Origin: Micavibrio sp.
GTDB lineage: Bacteria; Pseudomonadota; Alphaproteobacteria; UBA2400
Assembly (NCBI GenBank): GCA_040376705.1
Contig: JBEIQE010000001.1
Coordinates: 246,809-310,808, forward strand
Length of the DNA: 64,000 bases
Reading direction: 5' to 3'
Shown: one piece after another, positions 1-8,448 of the stretch
Layout of the letters: each line of letters opens with the position of its first letter
How positions within the stretch are numbered: position 1 is the stretch's first letter
The notes under the pieces: model-generated
Databases searched by the model: none
What the model saw: only the letters and a program-made list of their open reading frames with translations
Told to the model about the DNA's origin: nothing
Program-made: the position numbers and the translations under genes

Positions 1-534
1 TGAAAAGCCCATCGGCTCAACATGGCTCTGGATGGCGTGGCCGATATCGCCAAGGCGTGCCCCCGGCTTGACCAGTGCAATCGACTTCATCAGCGCATCG
101 TAAGTCGCATCAATCAGCTTCTTGGCGCGTACGCCAGCTTCACCCGCTACATACATACGCGAGGTATCGCCATGCCAGCCATCAACAATGGTGGTGACAT
201 CGATGTTCAGCGCATCGCCCTCTTCAAGAATTTTGCTGTCATCCGGAATGCCATGGCAAACCACATGGTTCACCGAGGTGCAGATGGACTTGGGGTATCC
301 CTTGTAGCCGAGCGGGGCCGGAATCGCGCCATGGTCGCGGATAAAATCGTGGCACAGCTGGTCGAGCTTGCCGGTGCTTACACCGGGCACCACATAAGGC
401 GTAATCATATCAAGTGTTTCGGCCGCCAGCTTGCCGGCTTTGCGCATGCCCTCAAAGTCGGCAGGACCGTGCAACGGAATATTGCCGGGGGCGTTTTCGA
501 AGTCGTCTTCGTCGTCTACTTGGGGCCTAGTCAT
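1..534 (-). CDS. map: Methionine aminopeptidase, type I (runs off the window edge; alternative start at 540)
   Basis: Manual translation of the minus strand: MTRPQVDDEDDFENAPGNIPLHGPADFEGMRKAGKLAAETLD...PAPLGYKGYPKSICTSVNHVVCHGIP...LNIDVT...GWHGDTSR, typical MetAP motifs. Not in the ORF track because the stop lies outside the window. Confidence 0.95.
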   Translation of the reverse strand, partial: MTRPQVDDEDDFENAPGNIPLHGPADFEGMRKAGKLAAETLDMITPYVVPGVSTGKLDQLCHDFIRDHGAIPAPLGYKGYPKSICTSVNHVVCHGIPDDSKILEEGDALNIDVTTIVDGWHGDTSRMYVAGEAGVRAKKLIDATYDALMKSIALVKPGARLGDIGHAIQSHVEPMGFS

Positions 535-594
535 AGGCATTAAGTAGCGTTTATACTGGTGAAAGTCTACTGTATTGAAGAAACGGCCCCTAAA

Positions 595-1347
595 ATGACA
601 GCGAATCCAACAGCCTGTATTGTCGTTATTGGCAACGAAATCCTCTCCGGCCGCACGCAGGACGCCAATATCAACTACATCGCCAAGAAACTGGGTGCGT
701 CAGGCATTCCGGTGCAGGAAGTGCGCATCATCCCAGATGTGCCGGATGTGATTGTAAAAACAATCAACGAAGTACGCGCCAAGTTCACCTATATCTTCAC
801 CACCGGTGGTATCGGTCCCACGCATGACGATATTACAGCCGAGTGTATCGCTCAGGCTTTTGGCGTACCGCTTGAGCATAACGCAGAGGCACTGGCGATT
901 TTGACCGAATATTATAAGGCTATAGGTAAAGAATTGAACGAAGCGCGTATGCGGATGTCGCATGCTCCCAAGGGGGCGAGCGTGCTGACCAATCCGGTGG
1001 GTAAGTTCCCCGGCTTCAAAATCGAGAACGTACATATCCTGCCCGGTGTACCGCAAGTGATGCAGAACATCTTCGATAATCTGTTGCCATCGCTTTCAGG
1101 CGGCCCGCCGATTGTGATGCATATTGTAACCTGCGATGTACGCGAAGGTGACTTGGCAGAAGACCTGCGCGAGATTGCGCTGCGCTACCCGACGATTGAT
1201 ATCGGTAGCTATCCCGGTGTGCGTAACGATCAGTTTGTCACACAGCTCATCTGTAAGGGTAGTGATGCCGAGATGGTAGCTACTGCAGGCAGAGAAGTTG
1301 CTGAGATGGCTGCACGTTTAGGTAATCTGCTGGACGTTGCGGCCTAG
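595..1347 (+). CDS. Competence/damage-inducible protein A-like (molybdopterin-binding/MocF domain)
   Basis: IGNEILSGRTQDAN, TTGGIGPTHDDITA and LPGVP motifs; ATG at 595 preferred. Confidence 0.9.
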   Translation: MTANPTACIVVIGNEILSGRTQDANINYIAKKLGASGIPVQEVRIIPDVPDVIVKTINEVRAKFTYIFTTGGIGPTHDDITAECIAQAFGVPLEHNAEALAILTEYYKAIGKELNEARMRMSHAPKGASVLTNPVGKFPGFKIENVHILPGVPQVMQNIFDNLLPSLSGGPPIVMHIVTCDVREGDLAEDLREIALRYPTIDIGSYPGVRNDQFVTQLICKGSDAEMVATAGREVAEMAARLGNLLDVAA

Positions 1348-1348
1348 G

Positions 1349-1834
1349 CTACATTCCCGTTTTGGGTGAGCTTAAAGTAGCAGTGTGCTGGCGGTATCGG
1401 TCGGCTGGGCCGCAGTTTTCGTCAAACAGCCTGGCGGTATCGGCAAGCCGTGTTGCTTCAATCTGCACACGGCCGATTTCTGCAGGCGTATTGGCGTTAT
1501 TCACATCTTTGCGCGCAGCATCCAGCTTTTCATCAATAATCGGCAGGGCGCGCGCGCACATGGCATCGCGGTTAATCTCGAAATGTTCAACCAGCTTGGC
1601 CTTATCAACATCAAGACCTTCAGGTATCTGCGGCGACTGCGCCGACTTGTTCATGCCGGCAGCCAGACCAACCAGTACTTCTTCCGGGCGCTGCTGCAGT
1701 GGGGCTGCGCCAAACGTCTGCATGGTCCGTCCGATGAGTGATTTGTTGAACGCATCCGTAGGCCCCGCGTTGGGGTTTTGCGCGATATATTCGGCCAGCG
1801 CTTCGGCGTCCTGTTTAATCCGATCTGTGCTCAT
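1349..1834 (-). CDS. Hypothetical protein (orphan-like, 161 aa)
   Basis: ATG-started ORF with protein-like composition, abutting the cinA-like stop; no recognisable motif. Confidence 0.65.
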   Translation of the reverse strand: MSTDRIKQDAEALAEYIAQNPNAGPTDAFNKSLIGRTMQTFGAAPLQQRPEEVLVGLAAGMNKSAQSPQIPEGLDVDKAKLVEHFEINRDAMCARALPIIDEKLDAARKDVNNANTPAEIGRVQIEATRLADTARLFDENCGPADRYRQHTATLSSPKTGM

Positions 1835-1879
1835 TCTTACAGGCTAACAGTATAGGCTTAAGGTATGCTGAAGCGGCAG

Positions 1880-1895
1880 GTTAATGAATATTTAC
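1880..1895 (-). promoter_or_regulatory. CtrA-box-like site upstream of the 1349..1834 ORF
   Basis: Minus strand reads GTAA-N7-TTAAC, one mismatch to TTAA-N7-TTAAC. Confidence 0.35.
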
Positions 1896-1909
1896 CATGC
1901 TGGTTTGCT

Positions 1910-1983
1910 TGGGCTATCGGCGGGACTTGAACCCGATTCACAGGGCCACAACCTGTTGTCTTGACCAGTTAGACGACCGATAG
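1910..1983 (-). tRNA. Non-canonical tRNA-His (anticodon GUG), 7-bp acceptor / 4-bp T-stem
   Basis: Minus strand folds as CTATCGG TC GTCT AACTGGTCA AGAC A ACAGG TTGTGGC CCTGT GAAT CGGG TTCAAGT CCCG CCGATAG C CCA. All four stems are fully Watson-Crick paired; D-loop GG, U33, TTC T-loop, C73 and an encoded CCA are present. Confidence 0.9.
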
Positions 1984-1994
1984 GATAAGCAGAA

Positions 1995-2366
1995 TTAAAG
2001 GGTCGCAGTGGCCATATGTGCTCTGGGTGTGCGGATAACAGGCTTCTGCACAGGGCGCAGTCTATCTGCATCGCCGCGCATAATTGCCACGCAGGTGGCA
2101 AGATAAAGCGCCTGAGCAGGATCGGCGGGCTGTAGCCATGTTTCGTAATTCTCGGCAGATGAGCGGATGCTGCTGCGGATGCCAGCGGGAAGCTGCAGGA
2201 GTGGCGTTCGGTCAATCGGGGCGCGGCTGAAATAACTACGCAGGTCGGTATTCACCCGAAAGGCAGCTTCGGCAATCTCGAGCCCGCTGGCAGGCCTGTT
2301 CAATAGAGCATTGATGCTGGCTAAATAGCTGAAATACTGAGTAGGAGCAGGTGTTTGTAGGGTCAT
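1995..2366 (-). CDS. Hypothetical protein (123 aa, MTLQTPAP...), between the HHHH leader and tRNA-His
   Basis: ATG at 2366 preceded by GCGAGTTTATC. The TTG extension to 2510 in the ORF track overlaps the leader/attenuator. The stop is 11 nt upstream of the tRNA. Only one His residue. Confidence 0.7.
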   Translation of the reverse strand: MTLQTPAPTQYFSYLASINALLNRPASGLEIAEAAFRVNTDLRSYFSRAPIDRTPLLQLPAGIRSSIRSSAENYETWLQPADPAQALYLATCVAIMRGDADRLRPVQKPVIRTPRAHMATATL

Positions 2367-2503
2367 GATAAACTCGCGAGCTGAGAATGGAAATTCAGGT
2401 CGGAGTATCGGGGGGAGAAGTTCAGATCCGCCGACACGCCAAGGCGCGCCGGCTAAAAGCCAACGCGCTAAGCGTGATGATGGTGGCGTGTGAATAACTT
2501 CAT
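2367..2503 (-). promoter_or_regulatory. His-responsive attenuator-like leader RNA
   Basis: Mutually exclusive hairpins 2468-2444 (GCGCGTTGGCT-TTT-AGCCGGCGCGC) and 2453-2430 (GCCGGCGCGCC-TT-GGCGTGTCGGC). Leader segment ACACGCCA (2491-2484) is complementary to TGGCGTGT (2441-2434). A C/U-rich tract follows at about 2420-2376. Confidence 0.75.
2468..2503 (-). CDS. His-run leader peptide MKLFTRHHHHA
   Basis: ATG AAG TTA TTC ACA CGC CAC CAT CAT CAC GCT TAG; the ATG falls at the predicted +1 of the upstream promoter (leaderless). Confidence 0.8.
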   Translation of the reverse strand: MKLFTRHHHHA

Positions 2504-2509
2504 GTTTCA

Positions 2510-2539
2510 AGCCTAAGCTAAATACAATCTGCAGGTCAA
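2510..2539 (-). promoter_or_regulatory. sigma70-like promoter for the HHHH leader unit
   Basis: TTGACC (2539-2534)-N18-TAGGCT (2515-2510); predicted +1 at about 2503. Confidence 0.6.
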
Positions 2540-2559
2540 AAGGTTTTTAGTTAATGTGG

Positions 2560-3465
2560 TTACAGGCTTTGCATCATTTCGCGCGCTGCACTCTTCATCG
2601 GTTCTTCAAACGCACTGTGATTGCCGGCAATCATGCGAATTTCAAGCGATGGCAGGGCCTCCTTCAGGCGGTAGGCTTCCTCTGGCGGGCAGTCCATATC
2701 AAAGCGGCCATGCACCAATGTACAGGGGATGCTGGCGATCTGTTCCAGCCCAGTAAACAGGTCGTTGGGTTGGCGCAGGAAGAATTGTTTGGTTGAGTAG
2801 TAGAACAGCAGTTTCCACTTGTTCACATCCTTATGGGTAATATCCGCCTTGTTCACGGGTTTTGGCACCATGCGGCAGGATGTGCTGCTGAGTACTGACA
2901 GCCTATAGGCGGCTTCAAGCCGCAGGGCCTCATCAGCACCATTAAGTGTCTCAAACATGAACTGCGTGAGGCTGCGGCTATCGCCAGCAGGCTTGAGGTG
3001 CTCGAGTGCGGCCTGCTGCTCGGGGAAGAACAGGCGAATGCCCTCAAAGCTCCATTCCTGATCTGCTACCGAGGCGCCAAAGAAACTGATAATCGACATG
3101 CGTGTGCAGTGCTGAAGATAGTTTTTAACGTAATAAACCGCCAGCGTTGCGCCCCATGAGTGGCCGGTTACTGCCCATTTATCGATACCCAGCATCATGC
3201 GTAGGCGCTCGATATCGCCCAGCGCTTTTTGTGTGGTGTTATCGCGCAATTCGCCGAAGGGCAGGGAGTTACCGGTGCCGCGCTGGTCAAAAGTAATCAG
3301 GCGTATCCGCTCGAGCGGAAAAATCTCAAGGTAGTTGGTATTGAAGCCTGAACCTGGCCCCCCATGCAGAAACAGAACAGGCGTACCATCCGGGTTGCCA
3401 TAGGCATACCACGCTACTTTGTGGCCATCCTGTTCGGGCAGTTGGCCTTGTGCATAAGGTTGCAT
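2560..3465 (-). CDS. Proline iminopeptidase-like alpha/beta hydrolase (peptidase S33)
   Basis: GNPDGTPVLFLHGGPGSG, FDQRGTGNS, GHSWG nucleophile elbow, HGRFDMDC and GNHS; ATG at 3465 lies 2 nt after the upstream stop. Confidence 0.88.
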   Translation of the reverse strand: MQPYAQGQLPEQDGHKVAWYAYGNPDGTPVLFLHGGPGSGFNTNYLEIFPLERIRLITFDQRGTGNSLPFGELRDNTTQKALGDIERLRMMLGIDKWAVTGHSWGATLAVYYVKNYLQHCTRMSIISFFGASVADQEWSFEGIRLFFPEQQAALEHLKPAGDSRSLTQFMFETLNGADEALRLEAAYRLSVLSSTSCRMVPKPVNKADITHKDVNKWKLLFYYSTKQFFLRQPNDLFTGLEQIASIPCTLVHGRFDMDCPPEEAYRLKEALPSLEIRMIAGNHSAFEEPMKSAAREMMQSL

Positions 3466-3467
3466 GT

Positions 3468-4682
3468 TTAGACACACTCCAGAGTGTTCTTGCGCTTGTG
3501 CATTTGTACACCCGGGGTGAGGTCGATGTCACCCCTCAGTACTAAGCCCATTTTGGCCATGGCATAGGGGTAGCCGGCATCAGTGAAGCTGTTGTCGTAG
3601 CCGGTACCGGGGCGTTCGCTGTCTTTAGCCAGCCTGTGCCAGTTGGCATCGTAGACATGGATTTCGGCTTTGGGCAGAGCTTCTTTCACCATATTCAGTG
3701 TTTCGGGCTCACAGAGCGGGTCGTTGCTGTGCGCCATTACGATAACGGGAATATCAGTTTTGCCGATAGCCTGTAGCTGCGCCCGTACACCCATTTTACC
3801 GAGGTAGTAATTATCAGCCCCATACTGCGCCATGATGCGTGCTCTCGCGATGAGCTGGCGATCCATCGGGTCATCCAGATTCACGCTGTCAGCCGTGCGT
3901 GTATAGACCTCGCCATTACGGGCCTGCTCCCATCGCGATGCCGCGATGAAGGCAGCAACAACACGCTTCTGGTCATTACTACCTAACTCATCTGCCAGTT
4001 GCTGCAGTCCTTCCTGCGCGTTCATCTTGCCGGTGGCGGAAACATAGCGGTCATACTCAGCTGGGTAGCGCTGCGCGAGCAGGCCTTCTGCTCCATAATT
4101 GTGGCCAATATCTGCACGGCGGGCCAGGAACGGCAGGCCAAGGACAAGCCCTGCCACCTTATTGGGATAGGCAGCCGCATAAGCGGTGGCCATGGTCATG
4201 CCCCATGAGCTCCCCCTGATAACCACACGCTCATCGTGGCCCATGCCTGCTGCTATACGCAGAGCTTCCATATCCTCAACCAGCTTTTCGGTGCGGTTAT
4301 TATCGAGGCAACCTGTGGGAGTTGAACTACCGGCACCACGCCAGTTGGCGGTTGCTACCCTGAATAGCTCCGGGCTGCTGTTGGTTTGCCACTGGTTGGT
4401 CATGGCTGTGCCGGGGCCACCTACAAGATCAATCGCCAGACGTGTCGGCTGACGGTTTTTGCGGCCTTCAAAGGTGCCGCGTACTTTATAGGGTATCTCG
4501 AAATTATCGTGCTTGAGCACGCCATCGGCCAGCTTCAGGTTGGTCCAGTTGTTGTAGTAGGCGTAGCGCTCGCGATCATACTCTACAAACGGGCTGATAT
4601 CCGGCCTGCGGCTGGCTAGTGCCTCAAAAGCATTGATGAGGACAGATTGAGTCCCACTGGTGGTGGCGGCTTGGTTAGACAT
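3468..4682 (-). CDS. Divergent proline iminopeptidase-like alpha/beta hydrolase with N-terminal extension
   Basis: VGGPG, WRGAGSSTP...NRTEKLVEDMEALR, GSSWG, GLVL, NDPLC and WHR match the S33 fold motifs. Confidence 0.8.
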   Translation of the reverse strand: MSNQAATTSGTQSVLINAFEALASRRPDISPFVEYDRERYAYYNNWTNLKLADGVLKHDNFEIPYKVRGTFEGRKNRQPTRLAIDLVGGPGTAMTNQWQTNSSPELFRVATANWRGAGSSTPTGCLDNNRTEKLVEDMEALRIAAGMGHDERVVIRGSSWGMTMATAYAAAYPNKVAGLVLGLPFLARRADIGHNYGAEGLLAQRYPAEYDRYVSATGKMNAQEGLQQLADELGSNDQKRVVAAFIAASRWEQARNGEVYTRTADSVNLDDPMDRQLIARARIMAQYGADNYYLGKMGVRAQLQAIGKTDIPVIVMAHSNDPLCEPETLNMVKEALPKAEIHVYDANWHRLAKDSERPGTGYDNSFTDAGYPYAMAKMGLVLRGDIDLTPGVQMHKRKNTLECV

Positions 4683-4750
4683 AATATACTCGCAGATAAG
4701 AGTTAGCTTGGCTTTTGGGAGGTTTTGGAGCGGTTATGCAGTTTTAAAGA

Positions 4751-4834
4751 TTAAAACTGTGCATGCTTCCGGTGCGCGTGGGCATGATGGCCGACGCGCG
4801 AAGTAAAGTGGAAGAAGATGCCGCTTAAAATCAT
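4751..4834 (-). CDS. His/Phe-rich leader peptide MILSGIFFHFTSRVGHHAHAHRKHAQF
   Basis: 27-codon ORF with 6 His and 4 Phe. Hairpin GCGCGTCGGC-CATCAT-GCCCACGCGC spans the His codons, hairpin CAGTTTTAA-TCT-TTAAAACTG overlaps the stop, and a C-rich/G-poor tract precedes the hydrolase start. Confidence 0.65.
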   Translation of the reverse strand: MILSGIFFHFTSRVGHHAHAHRKHAQF

Positions 4835-4843
4835 TATGCATTG

Positions 4844-4873
4844 TGCATAGCAGCACAGTTGGCGCGCCGTCAA
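4844..4873 (-). promoter_or_regulatory. sigma70-like promoter for the His leader/hydrolase unit
   Basis: TTGACG (4873-4868)-N18-TATGCA (4849-4844); predicted +1 a few nt before ATG 4834. Confidence 0.5.
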
Positions 4874-4905
4874 AACGTTTTTGATAAAATGTCTGCTATT
4901 AAGAT

Positions 4906-5361
4906 TTACGGCCTGTAGAGCTGATAGCCCGTGCTGGTACTCTTGGTTGTAAAGCCTAGCTGTTTATAAAGCTTGTTGGCTTCTTTGTTATTTGGCGTTG
5001 CTGCTGTATCAACCCGTGCGCAGCCCTTTACAAAAGCATCTTTCATGATGTGCTGAATGAGTTTGGTGGCAATACCCTGCGCCCGGAACTTGTCACTCAC
5101 GAATAGATGGTAGATGTGCCTGACTTTAAAAGGTCCGCCAAAGCTCACCCATTCACCAGTCAGGGCAAAGCCAACGGCTTTACCATCAAGCAGCGCAAGC
5201 CATGCATCTGCCATACGCTTGCTGCCAAGGCAGTATTCTGCAAGATGGGCCTCGGTCACGCGGTTTTTATCGCCGCTCCACTTTGCGTACTGCTTTAATA
5301 AAAGCACGAGCTGATGCAAGTCAGCCTTACGAATACGGCGAATACGCAAGGTGCTGCTCAT
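4906..5361 (-). CDS. GNAT family N-acetyltransferase
   Basis: LFVSDKFRAQGIATKLI acetyl-CoA motif A; N..ANKLYKQLGF motif B. Confidence 0.9.
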   Translation of the reverse strand: MSSTLRIRRIRKADLHQLVLLLKQYAKWSGDKNRVTEAHLAEYCLGSKRMADAWLALLDGKAVGFALTGEWVSFGGPFKVRHIYHLFVSDKFRAQGIATKLIQHIMKDAFVKGCARVDTAATPNNKEANKLYKQLGFTTKSTSTGYQLYRP

Positions 5362-5810
5362 ACCTTCTGCTCCCAGCCTTTTTCGGTTTGCTGCCAGTAG
5401 GTGAGCAGCGTGCCGCCTTTATCTTTAAAAACCTTCCACTGGGCGCGGGCCTGATCGAGTGCATCGTTATCGTTGCCATCGAACACATTACATACCAGCT
5501 CATACTTTGAGGTATCGGTACATTCGGCACCTTCAACCAGCATAAGCACCTGTGCGCCATTCGGGTTTTCATCTTTGGCTGTCAGCCATATCGGCTGCAT
5601 CTCGGGATCACCATCCTTGGCACTGCCATGCGGGATGAATGAGTTTTCATCGCTCTTCCATAGCGATTCATTCAGCGCTTCAACCCGCGCATCTGAGCCA
5701 ACCTTCACTACCGCACGCCAGCCCTTGGCCAGCGTGCGCGTGAGTAGCAGCGGCAACGCGCCTTCAAGACGCGTGCGCTGCAGGTGGTAGAAGCGGATCT
5801 CGGTTGGCAT
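5358..5810 (-). CDS. holC: DNA polymerase III subunit chi
   Basis: EIRFYHLQR, LW...SFIPHG, QPIWLT, ARAQWK and YWQQ; downstream of pepA. Confidence 0.95.
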   Translation of the reverse strand: MPTEIRFYHLQRTRLEGALPLLLTRTLAKGWRAVVKVGSDARVEALNESLWKSDENSFIPHGSAKDGDPEMQPIWLTAKDENPNGAQVLMLVEGAECTDTSKYELVCNVFDGNDNDALDQARAQWKVFKDKGGTLLTYWQQTEKGWEQKV

Positions 5811-7282
5811 TACTCGAAGTGATCAGCCACAAGGCGGTCGAGCAGGCGCACGCCGTAAGCCGAAGCGCCCTTCGGGCACATGGCTGTGTCCTTATACGCC
5901 CATGCCATACCGGCGATATCGAGATGAGCCCACGGCGTATTGTTCTCAACAAAGCGCTCGAGGAAAACAGCGCCAATAACAGTGCCGGCTTCGCGCGCAT
6001 TACCAATATTCTTCATATCGGCAATCGGGCTGTCGATATCGCGGTGATAGCTCTCGCCCAGCGGCAGGCGCCATAGCTTTTCACCAGTCTTGTCGCCAGC
6101 ATCAATCAGCTGCTTGGTGAGCTTGTCGTTGTTCGAGAGAACAGCCGCCTGCTCTGTACCCAGAGCCACGATAACCGCACCGGTAAGGGTGGCGAGATCA
6201 ACCATGGCCCTGGGCTTATAGGTGCGCTGCGCATAGGTAAGCACATCGCAGAGTACCAAACGGCCTTCAGCATCGGTGTTGAGGATTTCAATTGTCTGGC
6301 CGCTCATCGAGGTTACAACATCGCCGGGGCGGGTGGCTGCGCCATCTGGCATATTCTCAACCAGACCAACAATACCAACTACGTTTGCCTTGGCCTTGCG
6401 CTTGGCCAGCGCGATCATTGCGCCTACTACAGCGCCTGAGCCTGCCATGTCCCACTTCATTTCATCCATATTGGCGGCAGGCTTGATCGAGATACCGCCG
6501 GTATCGAACGTAACGCCCTTGCCGAGGAAGGCGAGCGGGGCATCGCCTTTCTTGCCACCATTCCATTCCATCGCCACAACGCGCGGCTCAATCGCGCTAC
6601 CCAGCGCTACGCTGATGAGTGAGCCCATGCCGAGCTTCTTGAGCGCAGCAAGGTCGAGCACAGTGACCTTAAGGCCCAGCTTGGTGAGTTCCTTCAGCTG
6701 GTTGGCATAGCTCACGGGGTGCAGCACGTTTGGCGGCTCGCTCACGAGGTTGCGGGTGAACTCTACGCCCTCGCTAACAGCCTCAAGCGGGCCATAAGCC
6801 TTCTTGACAGCGGCGAGGTCTTTAGCGTGAACGGTTACCTTGCTCAGCTTTGGCTTATCCTCGGCCTTCAGTTTGGTGCGGTACTTGTCGAAACGGTATG
6901 AACGCAGCACAGCACCATGTGCCACCAGCGCGGCAGCGTTCTTGTTCTTCGAGTCAACCGCAACAGCTACGCTGGCAGATTCGCCGTGGGCGAAGGCTAC
7001 ATACAGTAAGCCGCCCGCAGCGGTGAGGGTAAGGTCGTCCGCCTTCTCAGCCTTGCCCGAGCTGATAATGGTTACACGGTCGTAACCACCAATAGCGTAA
7101 AGCGAGAAACTCGCGCCAGCCTTATCCTTAAAGCCTTGTGCTGCCATACCGCGCGAAAGCGCGCCGCCAAGGGTTTTATCGAGCGCCACACCGGTCGGCC
7201 CCAGCTTATCGCCTGCAATAACCAGCGCCACGGTGCCCTTGCTGGGCAGGGGGGCAGAAGAAAAGTCGATTTTAACGGTCAT
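5810..7282 (-). CDS. pepA: Leucyl aminopeptidase (M17)
   Basis: GKGVTFDTGGISIK, MKWDMAG, NTDAEGRL, DLATLTGA and WAHLDIAG. Confidence 0.97.
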   Translation of the reverse strand: MTVKIDFSSAPLPSKGTVALVIAGDKLGPTGVALDKTLGGALSRGMAAQGFKDKAGASFSLYAIGGYDRVTIISSGKAEKADDLTLTAAGGLLYVAFAHGESASVAVAVDSKNKNAAALVAHGAVLRSYRFDKYRTKLKAEDKPKLSKVTVHAKDLAAVKKAYGPLEAVSEGVEFTRNLVSEPPNVLHPVSYANQLKELTKLGLKVTVLDLAALKKLGMGSLISVALGSAIEPRVVAMEWNGGKKGDAPLAFLGKGVTFDTGGISIKPAANMDEMKWDMAGSGAVVGAMIALAKRKAKANVVGIVGLVENMPDGAATRPGDVVTSMSGQTIEILNTDAEGRLVLCDVLTYAQRTYKPRAMVDLATLTGAVIVALGTEQAAVLSNNDKLTKQLIDAGDKTGEKLWRLPLGESYHRDIDSPIADMKNIGNAREAGTVIGAVFLERFVENNTPWAHLDIAGMAWAYKDTAMCPKGASAYGVRLLDRLVADHFE

Positions 7283-7353
7283 AACAAGCGCTCCGGCTGT
7301 GGGTGGACTTAATAGAGCCAACAAAGTAAAAGCTTCCCGAGAGTTGTCAATTG

Positions 7354-8448
7354 ATGAACCGTCTAGATGCCTATCTTATGCGTGCTTTGGTGCTCGCCCT
7401 GGTGTTCGTAACCTTCGCGGTTACGGCGGCTGTCTGGCTGACTCAATCACTGCGCTACGTCGATGTTGTGGTAGAAAACGGTGCCCCGCTGCACCTGTTC
7501 GTATGGCTGGCGCTGCTCACATTGCCCACTTTCCTCTCGATTATTCTGCCAGTTGCGCTGTTTGTCGCGGTGCTGTTCACCTACCATAAATTCATTCAGG
7601 ACTCGGAGATGGTCGCTATGCGCGCCTGCGGTATGGGGCCTCACGCTTTAGCTAAGCCTGCGCTGATGCTTGCCTTGGTCTGTACTGTACTTGGCTTCTT
7701 CATGAGCCTGTGGCTACAGCCCCTGGCCAGCCGTGAGCTGCTGAAGATGCAGTATTTCGTGCAATCGCAATTCTCTGCTGCGCTGCTTAAGGAAGGCACG
7801 TTTAACGACCTTGGCAACCGTATGACTGTCTATGTCGCGCGCCGTGAGCAGAACGCCGAGCTAACGGGCCTGCTCATTCACGATGGCCGCAATCCGGCCA
7901 AACCGGTCACCATTCGTGCCGTGCGTGGTCAGCTCGCCCAAGGGCCCAGCGGCCCGCAGGTGATTGTGTATGACGGTATCCAGCAGGAATATAACCGTGC
8001 CACCGGACGCTTATCAGAGCTGACGTTTGATAGCTATGCCGTCAGCCTTGATACGCTGGTGCCCACGTTGGCTGGCCGCACACCGCTGCCACGCGAGCTT
8101 GGCATATTTGACCTTATCCAGCAGTCGCGTACCGAAGCCGATGCAAACCGCCAGCGTCGCCTGACCTCGGAGCTGCATCAGCGCTTTACAGGCCCGTTGA
8201 TGTCGCTCGGTTTTGCCATGATCGCCACTTGCTGCCTGCTGTTTGGTGAGTTTAACCGCCGTGGCAATGCGCGCCGCGTGATTTCGGCAGTAGCTTTGGC
8301 CGCTTTGCTGCAGGCTGTTGTGCTGGGCATGGGGCAGATGGCAACGCGTAACAGCTGGGCTATTACGCCGCTTTATTTTGCAGCCTTACTGCCAATTATA
8401 TTAGGCGTTGAGCTGCTGTGGCGTTCCGAGCGCAGGAGGTGGGTATGA
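7354..8448 (+). CDS. lptF: LPS export ABC transporter permease LptF
   Basis: YjgP/YjgQ permease pattern (DSEMVAMRACGMG, ELHQRF); divergent from pepA; first of a tandem pair. Confidence 0.9.
   Translation: MNRLDAYLMRALVLALVFVTFAVTAAVWLTQSLRYVDVVVENGAPLHLFVWLALLTLPTFLSIILPVALFVAVLFTYHKFIQDSEMVAMRACGMGPHALAKPALMLALVCTVLGFFMSLWLQPLASRELLKMQYFVQSQFSAALLKEGTFNDLGNRMTVYVARREQNAELTGLLIHDGRNPAKPVTIRAVRGQLAQGPSGPQVIVYDGIQQEYNRATGRLSELTFDSYAVSLDTLVPTLAGRTPLPRELGIFDLIQQSRTEADANRQRRLTSELHQRFTGPLMSLGFAMIATCCLLFGEFNRRGNARRVISAVALAALLQAVVLGMGQMATRNSWAITPLYFAALLPIILGVELLWRSERRRWV

Follow-up and report, generated by a model that had tools for sequence, protein, structure and literature searches.

tRNA-His is a special case among tRNAs, its guanosine at position −1 (G-1) being either encoded in the gene and left in place when RNase P cuts, or attached by Thg1. 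To our knowledge, tRNA-Sec and organellar tRNAs apart, the 12-bp branch formed by the acceptor and T stems is regarded as near-universal. In enterobacteria, the hisL attenuator, a short open reading frame (ORF) with seven consecutive His codons in a structured leader RNA, controls histidine biosynthesis. Here we describe a second histidine tRNA gene, His-A, in a 64,000-nucleotide stretch of the Micavibrio sp. assembly GCA_040376705.1 (contig JBEIQE010000001.1, positions 246,809 to 310,808 of the forward strand); the whole stretch is called the window below, and coordinates are counted from its first nucleotide. His-A has C73 without an encoded G-1 and an 11-bp acceptor/T branch, a design that recurs in phage tRNA-His genes, and it lies downstream of a small ORF with consecutive His codons and of a gene for an orphan protein, P0001. 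We propose, with a probability of roughly 0.45, that His-A is an inducible spare tRNA-His of phage-like design, forming one histidine-decoding-sensing unit with P0001 as a His-poor helper.

In proteobacterial tRNA-His of the G-1 type, C73 and the G1-C72 pair are highly conserved, and histidyl-tRNA synthetase (HisRS) needs the G-1:C73 pair; loss of G-1 costs the E. coli and yeast enzymes more than 100-fold in catalytic efficiency, and the extra base places the 5′ monophosphate in the enzyme (Yuan et al., PMC3064791). The G-1-less tRNA-His of alphaproteobacteria is described in the same account as having A73, a G1-U72 pair and a divergent HisRS. Phages of alphaproteobacteria and one alphaproteobacterium carry 8/4 tRNA-His (8 bp in the acceptor stem and 4 bp in the T stem), which according to the main-text description have no G-1, have A73 or U73 and keep a 12-bp branch, 12 bp being treated there as the rule (Mukai et al. 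2017, PMC5389517). The earlier note on this DNA, made from its letters without database searches, had given the same background on G-1:C73, on A73 in G-1-less alphaproteobacteria and on 8/4 tRNA-His, and in this agrees with what these two sources report.

1910..1983, minus strand: tRNA-His-A (GUG), from ARAGORN, Rfam RF00005, the structure as read from the sequence, and conservation in relatives.

This tRNA-His(gtg) is the sole ARAGORN tRNA call in the 64-kb window. It scores 47 bits against RF00005 (E 6.7e-07; gathering threshold 29) in a cloverleaf alignment from which one T-stem base pair is deleted. The acceptor stem is paired at 7/7 positions starting with C1:G72, the D stem has 4 bp, the anticodon stem 5 bp and the variable region 4 nt, and the T stem has 4 bp (CGGG/CCCG) and a standard TTCAAGT loop. 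C73 is followed by an encoded CCA, the nucleotide at −1 is C, and the universal tertiary positions are complete (U8, A14, A15:U48, G18 G19, A21, U33, G53, T54 T55 C56, A58 and C61). ARAGORN, RF00005 and direct reading thus reproduce the anatomy first reported for this gene (a 7/4 branch with C1:G72, C73, CCA and C at −1), to which we add that it lies on the minus strand. Neither a fifth T-stem pair nor an eighth acceptor pair was obtained in alternative registers; the latter would require a G at −1, or pairing of U8 at the cost of a T-stem pair. The acceptor/T branch is 7 + 4 = 11 bp and not the 12 bp that 7/5, 8/4 and 9/3 tRNAs have, and the distance from the T loop to position 73, which is 12 nt in 46 of the 47 tRNAs of the genome, is 11 nt in His-A alone.

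The genome that holds the window (2.65 Mb in 94 contigs, 55.9% G+C, 97% complete) encodes 47 tRNAs, a permuted tmRNA (transfer-messenger RNA) of the alphaproteobacterial kind and a type-A RNase P RNA. His-A is an additional copy beside a canonical tRNA-His of the same genome, here called His-B, which has an encoded G-1, G1:C72, C73 and a 7/5 branch (contig C73, 410652-410727). The two genes are 162 kb apart and 61% identical, and His-A has the canonical GUG and C73 but neither the encoded G-1 nor G1:C72. The concern that the gene might simply be the genome's only, ordinary tRNA-His is thereby removed.

His-A is conserved well beyond its surroundings. A loop-and-spacing pattern scan of metagenome contigs yielded nine loci, three of which carry the His-A lineage (L057, L058 and L061). 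The tRNA is identical at 74/74 positions in L061 and at 72/72 in L058, where the contig end cuts the gene, and in L057 it is identical except for a D loop that is 1 nt shorter. The flanking DNA of these contigs is 66–83% identical to the window, and by segment the window shares 99% and 100% of the tRNA with L057 and L061, respectively, versus 77% and 69% of the P0001 coding sequence. The gene order CinA, tRNA, P0001 ... GNAT-HolC is kept in the relatives' contigs, which marks a conserved chromosomal slot. Because the tRNA is 99–100% identical amid diverged flanks, we judge His-A to be under purifying selection and inherited in place rather than decaying; this conservation in three metagenome contigs, together with the detector scores, also excludes a chance artefact. 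The earlier note had taken the perfect pairing as a sign of selection, and the 100% identity in L061 and L058 against flanks of 66–73% points the same way.

Outside these contigs the lineage was not met. Neither the tRNA nor P0002, an ORF downstream of it, was found at the kept M24-CinA locus of three other family genomes (G001–G003), and G001 and G002 have tRNA-His of the G-1 type only, at the loci found. BLAST with His-A gave matches in 0/40 relatives and none in 50,697 phage records. A strict loop pattern gave five matches among 185,579 species genomes, a scan from which the window's own record is possibly missing, and none of the five is a tRNA at the site; a relaxed pattern gave one other match (G245) among 400 genomes of the class, which ARAGORN does not call as a tRNA. 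In cellular genomes the 7/4 design with C73 looks rare. Contigs from two runs labelled RNA-Seq (X19 and X20) match the window at 1907-1991 only, with 2 differences, and then continue into L061-like flanks; they belong to a relative (X19 is probably DNA) and show neither expression nor RNA ends.

The same design is found repeatedly in phages. A class pattern (GUG anticodon loop, 13 nt, G53-TTCRA-N2-C61, 10 nt, C73-CCA) matched 40 viral contigs, and matches were then filtered by fold (T stem 4/4, anticodon stem at least 4/5, acceptor at least 6/7), a filter that forces pairing. Twenty-eight of the 40 viral matches and six of the nine metagenome matches fold as 7/4 with C73, giving 31 unique sequences, and His-A passes both the pattern and the filter with its 7-bp acceptor, 4-bp T stem, C73-CCA and GUG. 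The outermost T-stem pair varies in a compensatory manner across the 31 (C:G in 9, A:T in 7, G:C in 14 and T:A in 1), as does the composition of the third (G:C in 17, A:T in 13, C:G in 1), and a fifth T-stem pair can be formed in 11/31 only. For the compensatory changes whose absence the earlier note would have read as a pseudogene, the outcome is twofold: within the His-A lineage there are none, because its sequences are too similar, and across the class the T-stem pairs do vary, under a filter that imposes their pairing. At the class loci, ARAGORN draws an 11-nt 3′ strand in 23 of 29 tRNA-His and in none of 231 other tRNAs, and when A, G or U was placed at position 73 of the pattern only 8 of the 80 matches examined (83 were reported) fold as 7/4. 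Because of these two results we regard the 7/4 branch as a design specific to tRNA-His with C73. Pair 1:72 is G:C in 22/31 members, so that the C:G of the His-A lineage is not the majority state. Among cultured phages, Bacteroides phage DAC17 (MT074138) has a tRNA-His with an 11-bp branch, C73 and T at −1.

Possession of the short branch is linked to loss of the encoded G-1. G is present at −1 in 4/31 members of the 7/4 class versus 46/60 unique phage 7/5 tRNA-His with C73 (Fisher 5e-9, for sequences that are not independent). The leaders of the 7/4 class have a purine at −3 in 31/31, a pyrimidine at −2 in 80% and a nucleotide other than G at −1 in 27/31; that of the window, A(−3) T(−2) C(−1), agrees with this signature, and L057 and L061 also have the purine at −3 and pyrimidine at −2, with T and C at −1, respectively. 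The 516 other tRNAs of the same loci have a purine at −2 and T or another pyrimidine at −1, as do the genome's own tRNAs, and in tRNA-His that encode G-1, where RNase P cuts between −2 and −1, this signature stands one position further out. We computed from the leader nucleotides a log-likelihood ratio of a shifted versus a normal cut, using a phage model and an own-genome model, with the following results.

Known shifted cases: positive in 46/46, mean +3.6.
Background tRNAs: positive in 106/516, mean −1.0.
7/5 tRNA-His without G-1: positive in 2/14, mean −1.6.
7/4 tRNA-His without G-1: positive in 18/27, mean +0.5.

His-A itself scores +3.1 under the phage model and +2.2 under the own-genome model. 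The 12-bp stack is thought to serve RNase P as a measuring device, and the account in PMC11143913 describes cleavage moving to N-2/N-1 when the T-loop contact is disturbed. We propose that the cut is shifted in His-A because its acceptor/T stack has 11 rather than 12 pairs, and that an 11-bp branch may in general make RNase P retain one nucleotide of any identity at −1.

Other departures from the usual tRNA-His were seen among the phage genes. Fourteen of the 60 unique phage 7/5 tRNA-His with C73 have no encoded G-1, with T at −1 in 13 and A in one, and their leaders resemble those of ordinary +1 cuts (loci L192, L203, L218, L223, L238, L246, L248, L249, L253, L255, L256, L258, L260 and L267); the tRNA-His of Streptomyces phage Faust (NC_070783 76816-76891) is likewise 7/5 with C73 and T at −1. 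Five loci (L021, L022, L034, L038 and L039), representing four unique 7/4 sequences, encode G-1 with a U1-C72 mismatch beneath G-1:C73, and four of the five have shortened D arms. Eight phage genes (L102, L113, L139, L140, L143, L155, L167 and L175) are tRNA-His-like, with a 4-bp T stem, A73 and G at −1; a G-1 opposite A73 recalls eukaryotic tRNA-His, and mismatched 7/5 registers are possible for some of them. A phage tRNA-Phe(GAA), identical in L028 and L049, is drawn by ARAGORN with 8 bp in the acceptor stem and 13 nt in the 3′ strand, and such a 13-nt strand occurs in 5/231 non-His tRNAs of the class loci. A pattern written for the published 8/4 class with A73 retrieved mostly class II tRNAs and chance matches, and gave no useful comparison.

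His-A stands at the end of a compact arrangement of features on the minus strand, with one further ORF beyond it.

2534..2539, minus strand: TTGACC, a −35-like hexamer 17 nt before a conserved WTAGGY, from the alignment of all three contigs.
2468..2503, minus strand: leader mini-ORF MKLFTRHHHHA, 11 codons plus stop, from sequence and alignments.
2367..2467, minus strand: conserved structured RNA block, from identity, fold z-score and consensus fold.
1995..2366, minus strand: P0001, a 123-aa orphan protein directly upstream of the tRNA, from homologues and synteny.
1984..1994, minus strand: 11 nt separating the tRNA from the stop codon of P0001, from sequence.
1349..1834, minus strand: P0002, a 161-aa orphan ORF downstream of the tRNA, from one homologue only.

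The leader peptides are MKLFTRHHHHA in the window, MKLFARHHHHA in L057 and MKLFAHHHHHA in L061, with 4, 4 and 5 consecutive His codons, and the ORFs differ by synonymous third-position changes and an Arg-to-His replacement in L061. The predicted product comes from a short ORF with consecutive His codons that is conserved as coding sequence, and on these alignments the locus is built like a his-type leader peptide, with a tRNA-His gene as what follows it. Runs of at least four CAY codons occur 50 times on the two strands of the 2.65-Mb genome (5.3 Mb), so that about 0.001–0.002 would be expected in the leader interval on this strand. The block upstream of P0001 is 93% identical in L057 and 86% in L061, exceeding the P0001 coding sequence in both, and its predicted fold has a minimum free energy of −51.3 kcal/mol (z −5.1; 0/200 shuffles equally stable). 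A long hairpin, of which the block 2367..2467 holds the 3′ part, has the His codons in its base and an 11-bp GC-rich centre that starts at the last base of the leader stop codon (2468..2444), and a second hairpin (~2406..2369) ends in UUUAU just before the P0001 start. No Rfam family matched the block, and it was not found in the rest of the genome or in 20 relatives. The TTGACC hexamer is a putative promoter element; a promoter and terminator consensus scan of 1300-2700, which did not report it, gave no more sites than shuffled sequence.

Two candidates in connection with this leader were discarded. A 2:3 antiterminator pairing proposed by eye (8/10 pairs) is missing from the constrained minimum-energy folds, and the second ATG-started His mini-ORF of the genome, MHHHHLP at C79:49557, is a chance occurrence inside a 501-aa ORF of the other strand.

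In the window as in L057 and L061, P0001 stands before the tRNA and is read from the same strand, with its stop codon 10–14 nt from the tRNA in all three. It has two close homologues (82% and 63% identity) and four cluster representatives among 1.84 billion proteins. No Pfam family matched at E<=1, no PHROG matched, the atlas gave no usable match and there was no firm match in 400 other genomes. The AlphaFold model is poor (predicted local distance difference test score, pLDDT, 46) and suggests a small, helical protein; nothing in P0001 bears the signature of a nucleotidyltransferase. Histidine is scarce in the family, with two in the 736 residues of six members versus 2.1% in the genome's long ORFs. 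Elsewhere in the genome, three tandem paralogues of 136, 169 and 214 aa (G000:C79:227400-228650; L315 762-2547, minus strand) match the P0001 profile weakly (E 1e-5, 7e-4) and share its motifs '...RV...' and '...A(I/V)LRGDA...', and on account of these matches and motifs P0001 belongs to a small lineage-specific family.

P0002 lies 75 nt past the tRNA on the same strand. Its one homologue (76% identity) comes from a metagenome contig of 1 kb, and it has no family match. It is not a constant part of the unit, being absent from G001–G003, L061 and L058. Some 20 nt beyond the tRNA, the relatives share a Shine-Dalgarno sequence with its start codon. This start opens, in L057, a 180-aa SLOG cluster4 gene (PF18306, E 8e-29; L057:72-614, minus strand) that takes the place of P0002, and a short remnant is all that is left in L058 (~95-140) and, just downstream of the tRNA, in L061. 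The wider neighbours of His-A are housekeeping genes (an M24 peptidase, a CinA-like gene, two alpha/beta hydrolases, GNAT, HolC, PepA and LptF/G). An origin in a prophage or island was considered and rejected in view of these neighbours, the only matches to phage families being generic hydrolase and acetyltransferase ones; there is no composition shift at the locus, and no att-like direct repeats were found in window positions 1-8000.

A single HisRS, a hisS equivalog, is encoded in the genome (G000:C91:120510-121877; L064 1459-2829). It scores 352 bits against the PDB 3net type, 213 against eukaryotic cytoplasmic HisRS and 107 against the enzyme of E. coli or Thermus. This type is also found in the three family relatives, at 63–73% identity, and most of 30 class genomes searched have a distant type. 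The HisRS type does not explain His-A, because relatives with G-1 tRNA-His and without His-A share it.

We envisage the following working for this locus. The promoter-like site, the His leader ORF, the structured RNA, P0001 and His-A would make up one minus-strand transcription unit. When charged canonical tRNA-His is short, ribosomes would stall at the His codons of the leader, the leader RNA would refold, and P0001 and His-A would be produced. RNase P would cut the transcript one nucleotide upstream of position 1, as the leader statistics suggest, so that a nucleotide other than G (C here) stays opposite C73; the 5′ phosphate would thereby be placed for HisRS without a G-1:C73 pair or Thg1. 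The single HisRS would then charge His-A with histidine, and His-A would act as an inducible spare decoder of CAC and CAU. A broader version, in which the leader senses failing His decoding (for instance through depletion of canonical tRNA-His, its cleavage by a toxin, or phage attack) and induces a domesticated phage-type tRNA-His that leaves a non-G at −1, with P0001 as its dedicated helper, strikes us as doubtful.

A number of points weigh against our proposal. Expression of His-A and the ends of its mature RNA are predictions from the DNA. If histidine itself were limiting, an extra tRNA-His would not restore decoding. C1:G72 departs from the conserved G1-C72, and for the E. coli and yeast enzymes the penalty of losing G-1 is more than 100-fold. 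Constrained folding retains the second hairpin both with the leader covered and with it free, and covering re-pairs the first hairpin; the U-tract of the second hairpin is weak (UUUAU), and compensatory change is seen in 0/43 predicted pairs of three very similar sequences. The leader statistic is moderate and its sequences are not independent, and 9/27 members of the 7/4 class without G-1 score negative. Nor is RNase P a strict 12-bp ruler, since, as PMC11143913 relates, canonical tRNA-His and tRNA-Sec emerge from its cut with 8-bp acceptor stems and hence a 13-bp stack. If C-1 is mismatched with C73, the last paired position of the helix is +1, which is the usual RNase P cut site. Finally, A76 lies 15 nt from the T loop rather than 16 whatever occurs at −1, which bears on the fit to EF-Tu and the ribosome.

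A first rival is a normal RNase P cut, giving a mature RNA that starts at C1, has no −1 nucleotide and is a poor substrate or non-substrate of HisRS. Induced by His-codon stalling, His-A would then remain uncharged and serve as a decoy or a signal, such as an input to the stringent response or a means of titrating HisRS, or else as a donor in a non-ribosomal reaction. We hold this to be unlikely, although His-A does lack both acceptor features of the G-1 type (G-1 and G1:C72), the C or T at −1 is a normal RNase P context (a pyrimidine stands there in 85% of the genome's other tRNAs), control by a His leader suits a sensor circuit, and the 11-bp branch with its 15-nt 3′ strand is unique among tRNAs of the genome and may therefore escape EF-Tu. 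The same design occurs, however, among ordinary decoders in phage tRNA clusters, for which a part in translation is the simplest explanation; the GUG anticodon loop and C73 are exactly kept, and the leader statistics lean to the shifted cut. G-1 might instead be added post-transcriptionally opposite C73 to give an 8/4-like end, the enzyme being one that is not recognisable as Thg1. C73 is the templating base of archaeal and bacterial Thg1-like enzymes, as set out in PMC3061083 and PMC9508852, and P0001 is an uncharacterised protein linked to the tRNA, but, as said, it bears no sign of being a nucleotidyltransferase. Class-II nucleotidyltransferases, for their part, add to 3′ ends, and a PF01743 search of the genome found one ordinary 394-aa gene of the CCA-adding type only. 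The Thg1 route that the earlier note had offered finds no match either, PF04446 being unmatched in the genome and in 5/5 phage genomes with the 7/4 design (93–100% complete), and is not supported; addition by some other enzyme seems decidedly improbable. The 8/4 branch that the same note expected to result is half right: a nucleotide at −1 does give 12 stacked layers, but the product is not the published 8/4 form, because the strand from the T loop to A76 is 15 nt versus 16 nt in every 7/5, 8/4 and 9/3 tRNA. Charging with another amino acid and its insertion at His codons, for instance by way of the tRNA-Pro-like C1:G72, we consider very improbable. C1:G72 is indeed found elsewhere in the genome in three tRNA-Pro genes only, yet all three have A73 and NGG anticodons where His-A has C73 and GUG. 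The five class-II 2b cores and four HGTP anticodon domains fit the standard set (they were counted jointly, without naming loci singly), and the genome showed no additional class-II paralogue among its synthetases and has a single HisRS, so neither prolyl charging nor the extra synthetase that had been thought worth seeking is borne out. The note's idea that the RNA helps ribosomes at His codons, or acts as a regulator, does gain support from the conserved His-codon leader ORF, which the note had not seen.

Two further possibilities concern the gene rather than the charging of its product. Cuts by RNase P and 3′ nucleases at the tRNA could both define where the P0001 mRNA ends and stabilise it there, making P0001 the real cargo of the histidine-sensing unit. 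The position of the P0001 stop codon, 10–14 nt from the tRNA in all three contigs, would suit such a processing module, as would a conserved and His-poor P0001, but a processing signal has no need of an exact anticodon loop, C73 or CCA, the tRNA is 99–100% identical where P0001 is 69–77%, and the design is specific to tRNA-His, which together make this account improbable. That His-A is a tRNA gene in decay, left over from a phage or from a duplication, is barely credible: its absence from the three family genomes and the 400 class genomes searched would be expected of a relic, whereas stems that are all perfectly paired, and 100% identity across lineages with flanks at ~70%, would not. His-A moreover lies inside a conserved regulatory unit, and the divergence of P0001 and the flanks argues against a recent block transfer.

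Were the broader version outlined above true, a non-G nucleotide left at −1 would be a third route to tRNA-His identity besides an encoded G-1 and Thg1, and the short branch would also account for the dozens of phages whose tRNA-His genes do not encode G-1. Should the short branch set the 5′ end, there would be a direct link between stack measuring by RNase P and synthetase identity. Independently of the mechanism, a tRNA-His-specific 11-bp branch recurs in phages together with loss of the encoded G-1, and is fixed in a bacterial chromosome beside a canonical copy. A leader specific for one amino acid, standing before a tRNA gene for that amino acid, would make an uncommon kind of feedback, in which decoding failure induces a spare decoder. 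In the literature, searched mostly at the level of titles and abstracts, we found no published account of a 7/4 or 11-bp tRNA-His, of phage tRNA-His without G-1 or of a His leader before a tRNA gene; what we report as new is the recurrence of 7/4 with C73 in phage tRNA-His, the rarity of G-1 among them with leaders that look shifted, and the His leader and orphan gene before a tRNA.

The arrangement resembles hisL in that a short ORF with consecutive His codons lies within a strongly structured leader upstream of the genes that it would control. It has 4–5 His codons rather than 7, it precedes an orphan protein and a tRNA-His rather than histidine biosynthesis genes, and neither a clear terminator/antiterminator alternation was computed nor an Rfam match obtained.

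Compared with known tRNAs, His-A shares GUG, C73, the encoded CCA and a leader with purine at −3 and pyrimidine at −2 with canonical tRNA-His as represented by His-B, but has no encoded G-1, C1:G72 in place of G1:C72 and a T stem of 4 rather than 5 bp. With the G-1-less Caulobacter-type tRNA-His, as characterised in PMC3064791, it has in common an alphaproteobacterial host, the lack of G-1 and a 9-nt D loop; that type, however, combines A73 with G1-U72 and is the one tRNA-His of its cell, served by a divergent HisRS, whereas His-A has C73 and C1:G72 and exists beside a canonical copy and a single HisRS. tRNA-Pro shares only C1:G72 with His-A, which has neither its A73 nor its NGG anticodon. 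The 8/4 tRNA-His of PMC5389517 are like His-A in their 4-bp T stem and lack of G-1, and in being found in clusters of phage tRNA genes and, in rare cases, on the chromosome of an alphaproteobacterium; they are set apart by an acceptor stem of 8 bp, a branch of 12 bp and either A73 or U73, as against a 7-bp stem, an 11-bp branch, C73 and a 3′ strand 1 nt shorter; this separation follows the main-text description, and some of the tRNA-His sequences of that study may resemble the 7/4 class with C73. His-A fits none of the published tRNA-His types (G-1 type, G-1-less type or 8/4). It is matched in design by the phage 7/4 tRNA-His with C73 (L008, L016, L028 and others), which are at most 74% identical to it, although the T arm of L008 is identical, and which like His-A usually have no G at −1 and have a purine at −3. 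The phage genes sit in tRNA clusters without a His leader, whereas His-A is chromosomal and inherited in place.

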